64,000 nucleotides of DNA, taken from the sequence record MK373786.1, one strand, 5' to 3'. This document shows, one piece after another, positions 58,195-62,824 of the stretch; position 1 is the first letter of the stretch, and every line of letters begins with the position of its first letter. The position numbers and the translations under genes were made by a program. The stretch comes from Escherichia phage vB_EcoM_R5505. The notes below the pieces were generated by a model, which saw nothing but the letters and a program-made list of their open reading frames with translations, did no database searches and was not told the DNA's origin.

Positions 58195-58344
58195 TTACTG
58201 CTCGAACGCGATAACTATCGTGATAACACGTTGAATTCCGAACGCAAGAAGACCTCCTGCTACGGCTGGAACAACGCCTAAACCCGCCAGTAAAATGCTA
58301 CCAGATACTAATGCAGCGCTTGTAATACCAATGAATGGACTCAT
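58195..58344 (-). CDS. Small hydrophobic protein (motA.1 position), not in ORF track
   Basis: 49-aa ORF MSPFIGITSAALVSGSILLAGLGVVPAVAGGLLAF...; ATGA overlap with the gene 52 stop. Confidence 0.5.
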   Translation of the reverse strand: MSPFIGITSAALVSGSILLAGLGVVPAVAGGLLAFGIQRVITIVIAFEQ

Positions 58345-59669
58345 TTGATTTCCTCTAAATCTTTGGTGTATTCGGTAACTACATCAGTAGTTTTCCAATA
58401 TTCGTTTTCTTCTTTTTTAGCTTTAGCTTCTTCAGCAAGTTTCTTCGCTTCATCGGAAGTCATATGAAAAATATTCATTCCAACTAGTTTATCAACATAA
58501 GAAGAATACATCTCAATTTTAGAAAGTTCTTCGGTCAGTTCTTTACGAGTTTTACCCTGTACAACAATTTCACCTGAAATTACTTTCTTAATGAAATGTG
58601 CCTTGGCAAAGGCTAAACGAAAAGCTGACTCAGTTTCTTTAATTTTGTTATCAATTCGTTTTTGGACATAAGTTTTACGAACTTCAACGAAATCTTTAAT
58701 TAAATCAACTACGTTATCGTAAACTTGTAGTTTTCCTTTCTCATTAATAACCGTAATATTCTGAGAACGACGCTCAATCAACCCGAAGTCTTTCATAATT
58801 TTTGCATGGCGTTCTTCTTCATTATCGCTCAAAGAATATTCTTTGCGGAATTTAACTTTGAATCCAAAACCGTGCTCACCGCAAGCATCATCCCATGTAA
58901 TGAAGCCTTTATCTTCAAGTGGGTCTAAGATTTTACTCACATAAGTTTCACGATCATACTTATATGGAATCTCAGTGATATGCATTTGAGTTCGTGAAGT
59001 AAACTTGTATGTTCCACGAATTTCATATTGCCCATCAATTTCAATGACTTCACCACGAAATTCTGGGAATTCTACCTTCGGTTTAGTTACTTTCTTTCCT
59101 TGAAGAGCTTGTAGTACAGCTTTCTTGACAGAAGAAACACTATGAGGAAGAATGTAAGTTGCATAACCAGTTGCAATACCGGAAACACCATTAAGAAGAA
59201 CAGTAGGAATAATAGGCAAATAAAAAGCAGGCGGAATGTGTTCTTTATCTTGATGTACCGGAGCATATTCAGTATCTTTATATACGTTATAGAAATTTTT
59301 ACTTACACGAGCAAAAATATAACGACTTGCTGCTGCTTTTTGAACGGTACGAGAACCGAAGTTTCCTTGACCATCTAACAAAGGAAAGTTATTATTCCAA
59401 GTATTAGCCATCAAAGCGCCTGCGTCTTGTGCAGAGTTTTCGCCATGGTGATATCCAAGGTCCGCTACACCACCTGCAATAGAAGCGAGTTTGTGAAACT
59501 TATCTTTATTTCCTCGTGCCAAATCAAGAGCTCGAGCAATAACAAATCGTTGAACTGGCTTAAATCCATCAATCATATTTGGGATAGCACGATTTTCAAC
59601 CGTGTACATAGCATAAGCCAATGCTTCATTATCAATGATACTTTTTAAATCGCGATTATTCAGTTGCAT
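58341..59669 (-). CDS. 52: DNA topoisomerase II medium subunit gp52
   Basis: 442-aa ORF, GyrA-like N-terminal domain with catalytic Tyr region. Confidence 0.95.
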   Translation of the reverse strand: MQLNNRDLKSIIDNEALAYAMYTVENRAIPNMIDGFKPVQRFVIARALDLARGNKDKFHKLASIAGGVADLGYHHGENSAQDAGALMANTWNNNFPLLDGQGNFGSRTVQKAAASRYIFARVSKNFYNVYKDTEYAPVHQDKEHIPPAFYLPIIPTVLLNGVSGIATGYATYILPHSVSSVKKAVLQALQGKKVTKPKVEFPEFRGEVIEIDGQYEIRGTYKFTSRTQMHITEIPYKYDRETYVSKILDPLEDKGFITWDDACGEHGFGFKVKFRKEYSLSDNEEERHAKIMKDFGLIERRSQNITVINEKGKLQVYDNVVDLIKDFVEVRKTYVQKRIDNKIKETESAFRLAFAKAHFIKKVISGEIVVQGKTRKELTEELSKIEMYSSYVDKLVGMNIFHMTSDEAKKLAEEAKAKKEENEYWKTTDVVTEYTKDLEEIK

Positions 59670-59673
59670 AAAT

Positions 59674-59814
59674 TTACCATACTAGTGAATGTAGTGCCAT
59701 AATAACATCAGAAATGAAAAGCACGACTTGAATTAATCCGAACATTATTCCGTAATATAACGCTATCAATAAAATAGCAAAGGCTAATGAATAGCCCAAG
59801 ATTTTCTTAATCAT
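59674..59814 (-). CDS. Small membrane peptide (52.1 position), not in ORF track
   Basis: 46-aa hydrophobic ORF MIKKILGYSLAFAILLIALYYGIMFGL... Confidence 0.45.
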   Translation of the reverse strand: MIKKILGYSLAFAILLIALYYGIMFGLIQVVLFISDVIMALHSLVW

Positions 59815-59962
59815 TAGATAACAACACAAATGTTAAATATGCACACATACCCTGGGCTAAAGCCTGCGAAAACACACTGCTGGCATCGATACAGATAGTT
59901 AAAACACATGCTACTATCCAACAAATAAATGAAATAACTCCTAATAATTTTGCGATATTCAT
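59807..59962 (-). CDS. ac: Ac-type 51-aa membrane protein (acriflavine sensitivity)
   Basis: 51 aa from MNIAKLLGVISFICWIVACVL... with GAGGAG Shine-Dalgarno; track ORF begins at an upstream TTG. Confidence 0.7.
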   Translation of the reverse strand: MNIAKLLGVISFICWIVACVLTICIDASSVFSQALAQGMCAYLTFVLLSND

Positions 59963-59972
59963 AATATTCTCC

Positions 59973-60128
59973 TCAACTATTTTTAGAACCAATGTACGCG
60001 AATAATGATAAAATCGCTAATACGCCCTGAGCTGATGCTTGCAAAAATACTGAAGTTTCTCCAGTTATTACTGTTCCGATGCATAAAAAGAACCAACAGA
60101 AAAAGGCTATACCGTGAACAAGTTTCAT
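59973..60128 (-). CDS. Ac-like paralog, 51-aa membrane protein, not in ORF track
   Basis: MKLVHGIAFFCWFFLCIGTVITGETSVFLQASAQG... shares the CW..C...SVF.QA.AQG pattern with the adjacent ac ORF. Confidence 0.5.
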   Translation of the reverse strand: MKLVHGIAFFCWFFLCIGTVITGETSVFLQASAQGVLAILSLFAYIGSKNS

Positions 60129-60135
60129 ATTTTCC

Positions 60136-60216
60136 TCACTGGCGTCCGAAGACGCCTTTAGTTTTAAGATTGTTACGATAGAACTGCATCACATGTTCGT
60201 TATGGAAATTACTCAT
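60136..60216 (-). CDS. stp: Stp peptide, activator of the host PrrC anticodon nuclease
   Basis: 26-aa [29 protein letters not shown] matches my memory of T4 Stp; TAATG overlap with the ndd stop; 3' end encodes the hairpin ggcgtc-cgaa-gacgcc. Confidence 0.85.
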
Positions 60217-60671
60217 TAATATGCCTGCAAAACAAATTTAAAGTTATCAGCCAACATACGGTTCATTTCTTCAAGTGTTTGATACTCAGAATGATGATTA
60301 CGAGTAAACGCCAAAGCTAACTGACCTTTACCAAATCCCGTCGTCAGAGGTTTCATCTTAGAAGCAGGCAGATAAAATACTGTGTATGGAACATTGTTAT
60401 TTGCAATAGTACGCGCAAGCTGAGACCGACGCTGACGAATATGACTTAGAACTGCACTGAATCCTTGCTTAGAACGCTGATTACCTACATAAAATCGTGC
60501 AGACACACATGGATTACTAAATGGACGACCATCTAATTTACTTACTAAAAAGTAAAATCCAGGTTTAGACAAAATGTCTTTGTGCGGAGTTCCCAAAAAC
60601 CATTCACCGCCCTTGATTGTACCAATAACAGTTGCGCCTGCATTGTTCAGATCAGTAACAGTCATGTATTT
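60216..60671 (-). CDS. ndd: Ndd nucleoid disruption protein
   Basis: 151 aa from [18 protein letters not shown] (GAGGAAA Shine-Dalgarno); track ORF extended to an upstream start. Confidence 0.92.
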
Positions 60672-60706
60672 CATATTAATTTCCTCTAAATTATTTTCTA
60701 CTCCAA

Positions 60707-60728
60707 GGCCGCATGAATACACGCGGCC
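60707..60728. terminator. Hairpin ggccgc-atgaatacac-gcggcc upstream of ndd
   Basis: 6-bp GC stem. Confidence 0.5.
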
Positions 60729-60950: not shown

Positions 60951-61065
60951 AATTCACCTCAAGGAGTATAAAATCCGAATGCAGTTGTTGACCATCCCAT
61001 CCAATATGGAAAATTTGCACCAATGTAAAACATAAGAATATAAAACCAAATGTTTAGTAAATTCA

Positions 61066-61284
61066 TTATTTTACACCATTCCAAATTGTTTCAACCACAG
61101 ATTTTAAACCATTTTGATGAATATCAATTCCGACTACTGTCATCAAATAGATTCCAACTACAACTGAACCCAAGGCAAAAATCAGCATGAAAATGAATAA
61201 AGCCGGAAAAATATTATCGAAAAACCATTCAATAAATGTAAAAGCACTGCGTTTACGCTTCATATTTTCCTCACATAAATCCAA
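61066..61284 (-). CDS. Small membrane protein (ndd.x)
   Basis: 72-aa ORF with hydrophobic core FPALFIFMLIFALGSVVVGIYLMTVV. Confidence 0.6.
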   Translation of the reverse strand: MDLCEENMKRKRSAFTFIEWFFDNIFPALFIFMLIFALGSVVVGIYLMTVVGIDIHQNGLKSVVETIWNGVK

Positions 61285-61384
61285 AGTAAACGTTTAATAC
61301 ATCAATCATTAAAACGATTGGGAATATACTCAAAACTATTAGTATTATAACTACATTCCATATAGCTTTAACAATCTTTTTCAT
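61271..61384 (-). CDS. Tiny membrane peptide (ndd.x)
   Basis: 37 aa from MKKIVKAIWNVVIILIVLSIF with GGAGG Shine-Dalgarno and early promoter upstream. Confidence 0.45.
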   Translation of the reverse strand: MKKIVKAIWNVVIILIVLSIFPIVLMIDVLNVYFGFM

Positions 61385-61394
61385 TTTCTGTTCC

Positions 61395-61450
61395 TCCGTA
61401 GTTGATAGGGTAATAGTACCACGGAAGAACAGTCTTGTAAACAACTTTTT
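61395..61450 (-). promoter_or_regulatory. Early promoter (GTTTACA-N17-TACTAT family)
   Basis: On the minus strand GTTTACAagactgttcttccgtggTACTAT. Confidence 0.6.
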
Positions 61451-61627
61451 TAAAAATATTCGTAATAAATGTGAATACCAACTACTACCGCTGAAACCTG
61501 TGCAACCCACCACGCACAAGCAATAAGTACAGAATTCAAAATTTTCATAATAACCTCATCACAAAAGTAAATGTTAAACAAATTAATGGAATACTAATTA
61601 ACCAAACAAAACACCACCATAATGAAC

Positions 61628-61891
61628 TCATAGTTCAATCTCAATGATTTCCAGGTGTTTTTGTTTTATTGCCTTTTTAACACAATCATGGACTAAATAT
61701 GACCATGAATCATTATATTCTCCATTAACTAATCGTTGGAGATCTTCACGTGATGATAAGTAAGGTTGATCTGATTCCCATTTTGATAAAAATACTGCAG
61801 TAAAAATATCTCCTTCACCTGTAGTTGAAGTCGTAAATGCAATAAATTCACCGGTAATTTTATGTTTAGCGTAATAAAATTTAAATTTCAT
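61628..61891 (-). CDS. Hypothetical protein (ndd.x)
   Basis: 87 aa from MKFKFYYAKHK with GGAGG Shine-Dalgarno; track start lies inside the promoter. Confidence 0.55.
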   Translation of the reverse strand: MKFKFYYAKHKITGEFIAFTTSTTGEGDIFTAVFLSKWESDQPYLSSREDLQRLVNGEYNDSWSYLVHDCVKKAIKQKHLEIIEIEL

Positions 61892-61904
61892 TTTTACTCC
61901 TCCG

Positions 61905-61975
61905 TAGCTGATAGTTGTATAGTACCACGGTCCTTGTGGTATGTAAACCATTTTGTGAAATTTTTTTTTTTAAAT
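61905..61975 (-). promoter_or_regulatory. Early promoter with A/T-rich upstream element (GTTTACA-N17-TACTAT family)
   Basis: On the minus strand GTTTACAtaccacaaggaccgtggTACTAT. Confidence 0.6.
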
Positions 61976-62527
61976 GGAAAGATACCATCCGTTGTAGTTG
62001 CTTTTTCTTACAACCTTACGAAGGTCTTCTCTGTCACCGATGAACTTCGGAGTGTACTGGATGACACCTGGATGAATTTCTTTAGTGTTGAATATAATTA
62101 TACAGTCAGCGACTTGATGATTTAGAATGGGCCCTAGATTTATTCCAGAACCGTATGGATACTCTCCGCTGCATCCTGTTGTTACAGAAATCCAACGTGA
62201 GTCAGTTTGGTGTGTCTTAACTTCTACACGAAGCCCGCAGTATCTTGGATGCGCCAATACATCCCATGCGTATGTATACGGGTCATTAACATCCTCTTGG
62301 CCTTTATTAACATACCCGCTTAACCAATCTGCTACAAAAAATTCTGCGTACACAGCGATACGACATCTTTCAATAACTTCTGCTTTATCCTGGTTCGGGT
62401 TTTGTTTTAAAGAGTATCTTGCTGTATCAGCAATTTTGACCTTCATTTCACTAGTCAAGTCACTGTTCGATAGGGTAAATGTCGGAATCTGAAATAGTCT
62501 CTGTAAACCCGGATTCGTTTTCTGCAT
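61970..62527 (-). CDS. denB: Endonuclease IV
   Basis: 185-aa ORF at the T4 denB position. Confidence 0.88.
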   Translation of the reverse strand: MQKTNPGLQRLFQIPTFTLSNSDLTSEMKVKIADTARYSLKQNPNQDKAEVIERCRIAVYAEFFVADWLSGYVNKGQEDVNDPYTYAWDVLAHPRYCGLRVEVKTHQTDSRWISVTTGCSGEYPYGSGINLGPILNHQVADCIIIFNTKEIHPGVIQYTPKFIGDREDLRKVVRKSNYNGWYLSI

Positions 62528-62789
62528 TTAGACTTTCCTTTTTACCACTGAGATAGGCGTTATATACTTTAAGAGTGCCATAATAAATTCGGTCATTTTC
62601 ATCTAAAGACTCGCGGTCAAGTTCATCGAGCTCCTTTTTATCCATGACTATAACATCATTACAGTAAAGAAACCCAAGTTTTTCGTGACCAAACTCAAAT
62701 TTATTACAGTACACAATATTAGCGTGATGATTTCCGTGCAGTTTAATCTCTTTTATGTCGGAATCACCGATATTCATACAATAAATCAT
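62460..62789 (-). CDS. Hypothetical protein (denB.1 position)
   Basis: 109-aa ORF. Confidence 0.65.
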   Translation of the reverse strand: MIYCMNIGDSDIKEIKLHGNHHANIVYCNKFEFGHEKLGFLYCNDVIVMDKKELDELDRESLDENDRIYYGTLKVYNAYLSGKKESLNAENESGFTETISDSDIYPIEQ

Positions 62790-62806: not shown

Positions 62807-62824
62807 AAAGGGCCGAAGCCCTTT
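62807..62824. terminator. Hairpin aaagggc-cgaa-gcccttt
   Basis: Symmetric A/T-flanked GC stem-loop. Confidence 0.7.

Follow-up and report, generated by a model that had tools for sequence, protein, structure and literature searches.

A divergent second allele of ac beside the T4-type gene between stp and gene 52 of a T4-like phage

The ac gene of phage T4 has been in use as a genetic marker for 60 years. Both the loss of ac and the G38R substitution in its product render T4 resistant to acriflavine, and E. coli cells that express nothing but Ac from the phage show a sensitivity to acriflavine raised by ∼3 logs, with that to ampicillin raised too (bioRxiv 10.1101/2025.06.30.662393). The authors of that study proposed, without direct evidence, that Ac resides in the inner membrane and blocks AcrAB-TolC, and the idea has been repeated as an assumption elsewhere (PMC13250531). 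The older work (Silver, 1960s), in so far as it is summarized in the recent study, read the phenotype as increased uptake and not as blocked efflux (via bioRxiv 10.1101/2025.06.30.662393). Like ac, the genes 52.1 and ndd.2 to ndd.6 are already named and annotated in the T4 family.

Another small membrane protein linked to drug efflux is AcrZ of E. coli, a partner of AcrB that has 49 aa, forms a single bent helix and enhances the efflux of some drugs. As for the arrangement of small phage genes, Arbiol, Comeau and Krisch are said to have described PeSL cassettes, in which small early genes are shuffled as modules within the hyperplastic regions of T4-type phages.

Here we analysed a 64,000-nt stretch of the genome of Escherichia phage vB_EcoM_R5505 (MK373786.1), hereafter the window. 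To what was known of the T4 family this adds, modestly, the two-allele structure of the ac family, the stacking of both alleles in ∼7% of genomes and junction evidence for the route by which they became stacked.

Small genes between ndd and gene 52

The window comes from a Tequatrovirus (a T4-like phage) and the segment of interest is its 52.1-ac-stp region. The 2.3 kb around it showed 95-98% identity to several hundred Tequatrovirus genomes, the top match being vB_Eco_EL (98.3%). Gene identities were assigned by comparison with the annotated T4 record and translation of both. The order of transcription on the minus strand is ndd, stp, a 51-aa ORF (type-2), a second 51-aa ORF (ac), a 46-aa ORF (52.1) and gene 52, with the following features:

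60216-60674, minus strand: ndd
60136-60216, minus strand: stp, 26 aa, Pfam PF08133
60141-60156, minus strand: GGCGUC-UUCG-GACGCC RNA hairpin inside stp at its 3′ end, immediately before the type-2 Shine-Dalgarno sequence
59973-60128, minus strand: type-2 copy of ac, 51 aa, phrog_2501
59807-59962, minus strand: ac, T4-type allele, 51 aa, protein identical to T4 Ac
59674-59814, minus strand: 52.1, 46 aa from its ATG, Pfam DUF7396
58341-59669, minus strand: gene 52, topoisomerase II medium subunit

The three minus-strand ORFs that an earlier note on this DNA had placed between stp and gene 52 were all present at the positions it gave, and its description of the two 51-aa ORFs as Ac-like was borne out, since one of them is T4 Ac itself and both match phrog_2501. 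The list of ORFs extends two of the frames to upstream TTG codons (51 and 61 aa); the ATG starts used here agree with the annotations of T4 and Aplg8. The small ORFs are not new genes, as they are named in the T4 family and many GenBank records label the pair 'acridine resistance (x2)'.

The 46-aa ORF is a direct ortholog of T4 gp52.1, and the gene order and overlap are those of T4. The start of this ORF overlaps the ac stop codon (ATGATTAA), which indicates translational coupling. The protein is hydrophobic (GRAVY 1.78) and matched phrog_3595 and Pfam DUF7396 (PF24129; E = 1.4e-21, 76.8 bits against a cut-off of 27), residues 1-46 aligning with profile positions 1-46. Among 16 distinct alleles pN/pS was 0.29 and the JC-corrected dN/dS 0.28. 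AlphaFold2 run on the single sequence predicted one long helix (pLDDT 94), a model that is uninformative on membrane topology.

Stp is an activator of the host PrrC anticodon nuclease, and its gene is the left neighbour of the ac cassette. In the window the 26-aa protein is identical to T4 Stp (PF08133, E = 2e-21, 75.3 bits against a cut-off of 25) and its dN/dS was 0.13. The UUCG hairpin was kept in all loci aligned for the region, and the 66 nt containing it had a predicted folding energy of -15.8 kcal/mol (z = -2.7). A terminator scan flagged this hairpin on the antisense strand only. The sigma-70 promoter scan of the region gave 15 sites against 14.9 expected, which is the background level.

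Two ac alleles, their distribution and their junction

The product of ORF 59807-59962 is 100% identical to T4 Ac (NP_049877), and 152 of its 156 nucleotides are the same. As in T4, the gene lies after stp and overlaps the start of 52.1. It carries a Shine-Dalgarno sequence (GAGGAG) 6 nt 5′ of the ATG and matched phrog_2501 over its full length (E = 2.2e-25). In T4, by contrast, nothing corresponds to the copy at 59973-60128, and stp runs directly into a single ac gene. This additional copy is preceded by its own Shine-Dalgarno sequence (GAGGA, 5 nt 5′ of the ATG) and also matched phrog_2501 over the full length (E = 6e-26). The upstream protein belongs to the same family as T4 Ac and has the same length, predicted hairpin and conserved motif, but its identity to T4 Ac is only 42-45%; BLASTP between the two 51-aa proteins gave 18 identities in 40 positions (E = 2e-10), and their GRAVY values were 1.17 and 1.46. 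Protein identities of 69-96% were instead found to annotated acridine resistance proteins of RB33, RB68, UFV-AREG1, T4_ev151 and other phages. These results show that the extra copy is a divergent, type-2 allele of the Ac family located upstream of the T4-type allele.

We then aligned 12 diverse members of the family. Results showed that W12, T19, V27, F28, Q30 and Q34 (type-2 numbering) were invariant and that E24, G35 and A38 were nearly so, which gives the motif W...T...(E/D)..VF.Q..Q(G), present in both copies of the window. The T4-type copy has D-A at the turn, where the other members have G-E; the remaining conserved residues are kept in both copies. The earlier note had described a pattern shared by the two ORFs, and the similarity on which it rested is real; the spacing from the second Cys to SVF, however, is 9 residues and not the 6 that it contained.

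To place the family more widely, an HMM built from the Ac alignment was searched exhaustively against 1.84 billion representative proteins, with 9 matches. Seven were proteins of 48-52 aa that look like members of the Ac family; the other two (2254 and 859 aa) were rejected as chance matches to short, repeated stretches (E ∼3e-4). Among the seven small matches none was traced to a bacterial chromosome, contigs having been fetched for two of them (P0012 and P0009), and the one that bears a bacterial name lies on a phage-sized contig of 164 kb; the search thus gave no hint of a cellular relative whose function might be transferred to Ac. The contig of P0012 carries rIIB and denB besides ndd and gene 52, with the P0012 gene between the latter two, and P0009 adjoins ndd. 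The slot from ndd/stp to 52.1/gene 52 is kept even in the distant relative L027. Precomputed matches to Pfam PF26944 (Phage_T4_Ac) were found on P0004, P0007 and P0009, close relatives of the type-2 copy; scans of both copies of the window with NCBIfam and with a Pfam set that lacks the PF26944 model gave no match.

The type-2 gene is the only ac gene in 10 of the 10 type-2-only loci that were fetched (among them RB32, RB51, wV7, RPN226, UFV-AREG1, ESh30, REP4 and the Gaprivervirus phages TH40 and TH57), as it also is in RB33 and RB68, and in single-copy phages it occupies the exact slot that the T4-type gene has in T4. The RB32 record itself notes its ac as 'more similar to RB69'. Among ∼750 matching GenBank phage records, ∼50 carry both alleles in tandem (∼7% of sequenced relatives) and ∼42 carry type-2 alone; the remainder are mostly T4-type alone, together with a minority of distant relatives that match part of the region. 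The tandem spans several Tequatrovirus species: it was confirmed in the fetched records of slur07, Aplg8, PhiZZ6 and pSs-1, and PST, ECML-134, Sf22 and others are also among the records in the hit list. Type-2 sequences are mosaic, as the tandem copy resembles RB51 and RB68 at its C-terminus and RPN226 and UFV-AREG1 over its N-terminal two thirds. T4_ev151 has a different N-terminal segment, and in the metagenomic protein P0009 a turn of the type-2 kind is joined to a second helix that resembles that of T4.

The boundary between the two copies was read from a DNA alignment and from the junction strings:

59978 to 59960, minus strand: junction between the ac copies, AGTTGAGGAGAATATT-ATG
59972-59963, minus strand: most of the 3′ part of the junction, between the type-2 stop codon and the ac ATG

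The junction opens with AGT TGA (59978-59973), which are the final sense codon of type-2 and its stop, and ends with the start codon of ac (ATG, 59962-59960). It copies the sequence formed by the end of stp and the Shine-Dalgarno site, (C)AGTGAGGAAAAT-ATG. Placed side by side, the strings are AAAAAT-AGTTGAGGAGAATATT-ATG in the window, AAAAAT-AGTTGAGGAAAAT-ATG in sb4 and CGCC-AGTGAGGAAAAT-ATG at the stp-ac boundary of T4, so that the junction of sb4 is that of T4 with one inserted T. The outer flanks are alike in all arrangements: at one border TGAGGAAAATATGAA comes after the end of stp, and the other border is AATGATTAAGAAAATC, the start of 52.1. Compared with the type-2 genes of RB32, RB33, RB51, RB68, wV7, UFV-AREG1 and Gaprivervirus, the upstream copy of the window has a protein identity of 69-90% and shares the junction on the stp side. 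In the single-copy phages, however, the type-2 stop codon overlaps the start of 52.1, whereas in the window type-2 ends in ...KNS, its stop codon is taken over from the junction of stp type and the next gene is the T4-type ac.

A recent tandem duplication in place was ruled out, because the two copies of the window have only 52% nucleotide identity and their synonymous sites are near saturation (pS 0.70). The junction suggests another route. A type-2 gene would have been joined, right behind its penultimate codon (AAT, Asn), to the last two bases of stp, and the joined stretch would also have brought the stp stop codon and the Shine-Dalgarno sequence that precedes a T4-type ac. Joining at AAT would explain why the tandem type-2 protein ends in ...KNS and the single-copy alleles end in ...KND. 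Such joining may have occurred by illegitimate or unequal recombination between co-infecting phages that carried different alleles, after which both copies would have been kept as coding genes. Illegitimate or unequal exchange is the simplest reading of the origin of the tandem, reconstructed as it is from one undatable junction.

Selection on Ac, its predicted structure and its possible action

Scans of IMG/VR and of metagenome contigs gave only 5 and 3 related loci, and because these were too few the population analysis was moved to 22 annotated GenBank regions. Nei-Gojobori statistics were calculated on 27 related loci. The T4-type ac had a dN/dS of 0.09, with 9 of its 12 variable columns at third codon positions; the type-2 gene had a dN/dS of 0.36 (18 alleles) and its central GETSVF.Q..AQG block never varied. 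Purifying selection this strong on the T4-type gene (dN/dS ∼0.09), despite the vulnerability to DNA intercalators that Ac brings, implies a real benefit of Ac to the phage.

Short frames can be open by chance in AT-rich DNA, and such a noncoding origin might be put forward here because the ORFs are so small and are passed over by some gene finders; in the record of RB32, for example, the genes 52.1 and stp carry the remark 'not predicted by GeneMarkS or Glimmer'. Against this, the small ORFs have Shine-Dalgarno sites or coupled starts, their pN/pS values range from 0.07 to 0.4 and their variable sites cluster at third codon positions, homologs are kept in distant relatives, and the genetics of ac is well established in the literature. 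Selection and homology, as read from the sequences, have already refuted the idea of chance frames, whose probability is close to nil. The expectation of the earlier note that these were genuine genes for small hydrophobic proteins thus held. Of the two outcomes that it named as refuting, an absence of translation signals and a lack of purifying selection, neither was observed, and the ORFs are therefore coding genes. Whether both copies of ac matter is a separate question, because type-2 might be a redundant passenger of recombination that drifts towards loss while the T4-type copy alone is of consequence. A single ac copy suffices in most Tequatroviruses. In the tandem lineage, moreover, the T4-type copy had 8 synonymous variants and in essence a single true replacement (A27V), two further counted changes coming from a one-codon Thr insertion, whereas the type-2 copy showed 5 synonymous and 9 nonsynonymous variants; the corresponding nonsynonymous/synonymous ratios were 0.10 and, from these small numbers, 0.51. 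The type-2 copy of BCH953P4 also carries a 1-nt deletion. Given this deletion and the weaker constraint, the function of type-2 in the tandem is not assured. The deletion lies, however, in a homopolymer of five T and may be a sequencing error. Both copies were intact in 9 of the 11 tandem loci and type-2 in 10 of them, from several species; its Shine-Dalgarno sequence and ATG are retained, and none of its 9 nonsynonymous variants falls in the conserved central motif. In sb4 it is stp and the T4-type ac that have nonsense codons, at Q11 and W15 respectively, and type-2 is the intact copy. Type-2 is thus less constrained in the tandem, yet, within the small numbers available, it is not obviously decaying, and we consider it rather improbable that it is a mere passenger.

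For the type-2 protein, AlphaFold2 with a small alignment predicted two helices (residues 2-22 and 25-50) separated by a turn at G23-E24, with a mean pLDDT of 78. From this model, the hydropathy, the basic N-terminal residue and the acidic turn, we infer that Ac is a hairpin in the membrane, its N- and C-termini both lying on the cytoplasmic side. A Foldseek comparison of the hairpin model with the PDB returned generic helical hairpins only (best E = 2.9), and a profile search of PDB sequences with Ac gave no match. Ac would resemble AcrZ in being a membrane protein of ∼50 aa and, according to the published hypothesis, in binding the transmembrane part of the AcrAB-TolC pump. It differs in its predicted two-helix hairpin and in that it is proposed to inhibit efflux, which AcrZ enhances. 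An hhalign comparison of Ac with AcrZ gave a probability of 0.4% and one aligned column; any resemblance would therefore lie in the mode of action and not in ancestry. The site of the G38R substitution was identified in our alignment as the conserved Gly of the AQG motif, so that the conserved residues with which helix 2 begins are important for function.

By analogy with T4, it can be assumed that the copy identical to T4 Ac confers acridine sensitivity. In the explanation that we prefer, each Ac would be an inner-membrane helical hairpin of ∼50 aa whose turn is acidic and whose second helix begins with a conserved polar stretch (E..VF.Q..QG). Made early in infection, Ac would raise the intracellular level of acridine, most likely by binding and blocking a host efflux system, for which AcrAB-TolC is the published candidate. 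The two alleles would probably have one and the same function, though their preferred targets may differ. Taken as a whole, that is to say the tandem of alleles, its origin by recombination, the hairpin and an Ac that blocks efflux, this explanation is somewhat more probable than the sum of its alternatives. Efflux inhibition by itself, which draws on prediction and on the literature, is the most likely mechanism of Ac with a probability that comes near to even. The earlier note had guessed at a modulator of transporters, which agrees with the hypothesis that Ac blocks AcrAB-TolC (bioRxiv 10.1101/2025.06.30.662393); for a superinfection function, which it also named, our analysis gave no support.

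The main rival to a block of efflux is a change in permeability, in which Ac, and possibly its paralog too, would act as a viroporin-like pore-former or membrane perturbant that lets more cationic dye in or alters the membrane potential and has no specific pump as its target. Such an Ac would suit the classical view of an early, energy-dependent permeability change, as the recent study relates it, and sensitization to two unrelated drugs fits a leak as well as it fits a blocked pump (bioRxiv 10.1101/2025.06.30.662393). The predicted two-helix hairpin is very hydrophobic, and its polar, Q/S-rich stretch could line an oligomeric pore. A general leak is expected to be costly, however, and T4 ac+ infections are productive, with drug-free titres unaffected on cells that express Ac (bioRxiv 10.1101/2025.06.30.662393). 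In addition, the conserved residues lie on most faces of helix 2, an arrangement that better suits a protein-protein interface than a single pore-lining face. A pore-forming Ac thus seems unlikely, if still worth consideration. Far less probable is an action of the small membrane proteins of the segment (52.1, ac and ndd.2 to ndd.6) on the lipid metabolism of the host membrane, with the acridine effect as a secondary consequence. The T4 deletion sa-delta-9 does abolish the stimulation of phosphatidylglycerol synthesis that T4 induces, but it removes 52.1, ac, stp, ndd, ndd.1 to ndd.6 and denB, more than 10 genes in all (PMC6071114). Point mutations in ac alone are enough to give the acridine phenotype (bioRxiv 10.1101/2025.06.30.662393), and we found no link in sequence or fold between these proteins and enzymes or regulators of lipid metabolism.

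Whatever its mechanism, ac is represented by at least two deeply diverged alleles that replace each other at one slot and that occur together in ∼7% of sequenced relatives. They constitute a natural set of variants, useful for the efflux-pump hypothesis and for mapping an interaction surface, and leave what is known of the locus unchanged.

Small hydrophobic genes around the ac slot

The interval from ndd to gene 52 holds different small hydrophobic ORFs in different phages. REP4 has one of 53 aa between stp and ac, and UFV-AREG1 has one of 57 aa between ndd and stp; relatives of both ORFs flank the Ac homolog on the distant contig L027. As the small ORFs differ from phage to phage, the interval behaves as a variable array of genes for small membrane proteins. 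It resembles the PeSL idea in its differing sets of small hydrophobic ORFs and its shared boundary sequences. Unlike in PeSL, the repeated boundary is a stop codon, Shine-Dalgarno sequence and ATG beside the UUCG hairpin of stp, and not a cassette of promoter and stem-loop. A doubtful extension is that the two classes of Ac are specificity variants for different host membrane targets (RND pumps, or variants of one pump) and that the interval is an array of cassettes exchangeable through their shared stop/Shine-Dalgarno/ATG junctions. If so, a phage that stacks both alleles would benefit from Ac in more hosts or under more conditions.

A second run of hydrophobic mini-ORFs, which the earlier note had reported at about 60957-61627, is equally real. 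The comparison with T4 ac and ndd.1 to ndd.6 that the note recommended yielded exact correspondences: the run consists of T4 ndd.2, ndd.2a, ndd.4, ndd.5 and ndd.6, each in a PHROG family of its own and each a direct ortholog of its T4 namesake, with the same order and overlaps:

60959-61066, minus strand: ndd.2, 35 aa, hydrophobic; phrog_4135 (E = 3e-23); pN/pS 0.11
61066-61263, minus strand: ndd.2a, 65 aa, intact; DUF7248; pN/pS 0.07
61271-61384, minus strand: ndd.4, 37 aa, hydrophobic; phrog_3098 (E = 2.9e-21); Shine-Dalgarno sequence GGAGGA; ortholog of T4 ndd.4
61450-61548, minus strand: ndd.5, 32 aa, hydrophobic; phrog_5011 (E = 3.6e-26)
61545-61631, minus strand: ndd.6, 28 aa, hydrophobic; phrog_8851 (E = 3.2e-17); pN/pS 0.07

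The genes are tightly packed. The start of ndd.2 overlaps the stop codon of ndd.2a (TAATG), ndd.5 has an ATGA overlap with the stop codon of ndd.6, and ndd.6 has another with the stop codon of the ORF upstream. Where variation sufficed for a measurement pN/pS was 0.07-0.11, and the DNA of ndd.5 was identical in 9 of the 9 loci compared. The ndd.2a protein matched PF23906 (DUF7248; E = 6.5e-19, 68.1 bits against a cut-off of 27) over positions 4-57 of the 58 in the profile. Alignment showed that in the T4 reference a 1-nt deletion splits this gene into the annotated 'ndd.3' and 'ndd.2a', whereas the form in the window is intact. The window also differs from T4 by an additional gene of 87 aa between ndd.6 and denB.

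Gene content between ndd and denB

In the window, positions 61066-61263 on the minus strand carry an intact 65-aa gene, ndd.2a, whose product matches full-length Pfam DUF7248 and which is also intact in the tandem-ac phage Aplg8. Comparison with the T4 reference (locus L002, 3933-4129) revealed the deletion of one nucleotide directly after the start codon, the sequence reading ATGAA-CGT in T4 versus ATGAAGCGT in the window. Given this single-nucleotide deletion, 'ndd.3' and 'ndd.2a', annotated in T4 as separate genes of 26 and 40 aa, appear to be a single gene split in two by a frameshift.

The window also contains an additional reading frame in this region:

61628-61951, minus strand: 87-aa ORF, or 107 aa if begun at an ATG further upstream, between ndd.6 and denB

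This ORF gave a full-length match to phrog_2390 (E = 3e-43), and its stop codon overlaps the start of ndd.6 in an ATGA arrangement. In contrast, T4 has a mere 106-nt gap at this place, whereas Aplg8 carries a diverged copy of the ORF that is not annotated. In addition, reading back from the putative ndd start (MKYM...), the frame is open for 16 further codons, to a GTG (60675-60722, minus strand). The same extension, starting with ATG, is annotated within Ndd in Aplg8 and RB32, and it includes the GAGGAAA that would be the Shine-Dalgarno site of the shorter Ndd form.

A repeated start-site string and two UUCG hairpins

The window holds exactly two copies of a 15-nt string, TGAGGAAAATATGAA, that combines stop, Shine-Dalgarno and start signals, compared to 0.04 copies expected by chance:

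60124-60138, minus strand: copy before the divergent (type-2) ac gene
61259-61273, minus strand: copy before ndd.2a

A slightly changed form of the string is present at the junction between the two ac copies. The string may mark a recombination-prone boundary of small-gene cassettes.

Hairpins of the C(UUCG)G type are a known feature of T4 mRNA, and two stable UUCG-tetraloop hairpins were located in the window:

60141-60156, minus strand: GGCGUC-UUCG-GACGCC, inside the last codons of stp
62807-62824, minus strand: hairpin followed by a T-run, downstream of a 109-aa ORF (62460-62789) and upstream of denB

The stp hairpin stands immediately before the first ac copy's Shine-Dalgarno site, and every locus aligned for that region retains it. 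The second looks like an intrinsic terminator.

Variation of the ndd-to-52 interval among related phages

Other phages house different small hydrophobic ORFs in the ndd-to-52 interval:

REP4 locus, about 858-1019: 53-aa hydrophobic ORF between stp and ac
UFV-AREG1 locus, 947-1120: 57-aa hydrophobic ORF (...FER....CGV.E) between ndd and stp

Recognisable relatives of both flank the Ac homolog on L027, a distant T4-like metagenomic contig (2331-2504 and 2655-2813).

Disrupted frames were found in two tandem phages. In Shigella phage sb4, stp is interrupted by a nonsense codon at codon 11 (CAG to TAG) and the T4-type ac by another at W15 (TGG to TGA), with the type-2 ac intact, and in Tequatrovirus BCH953P4 the type-2 ac has lost one nucleotide from a T5 run. 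These changes represent either natural knock-outs or sequencing errors. In Shigella phage ESh30 (locus L004, 1339-1501), the 52.1 frame continues beyond its usual stop (...HSLVWVNLCN) and overlaps the gene 52 ORF, itself N-terminally extended; since the record is marked UNVERIFIED, this arrangement may be an assembly error.
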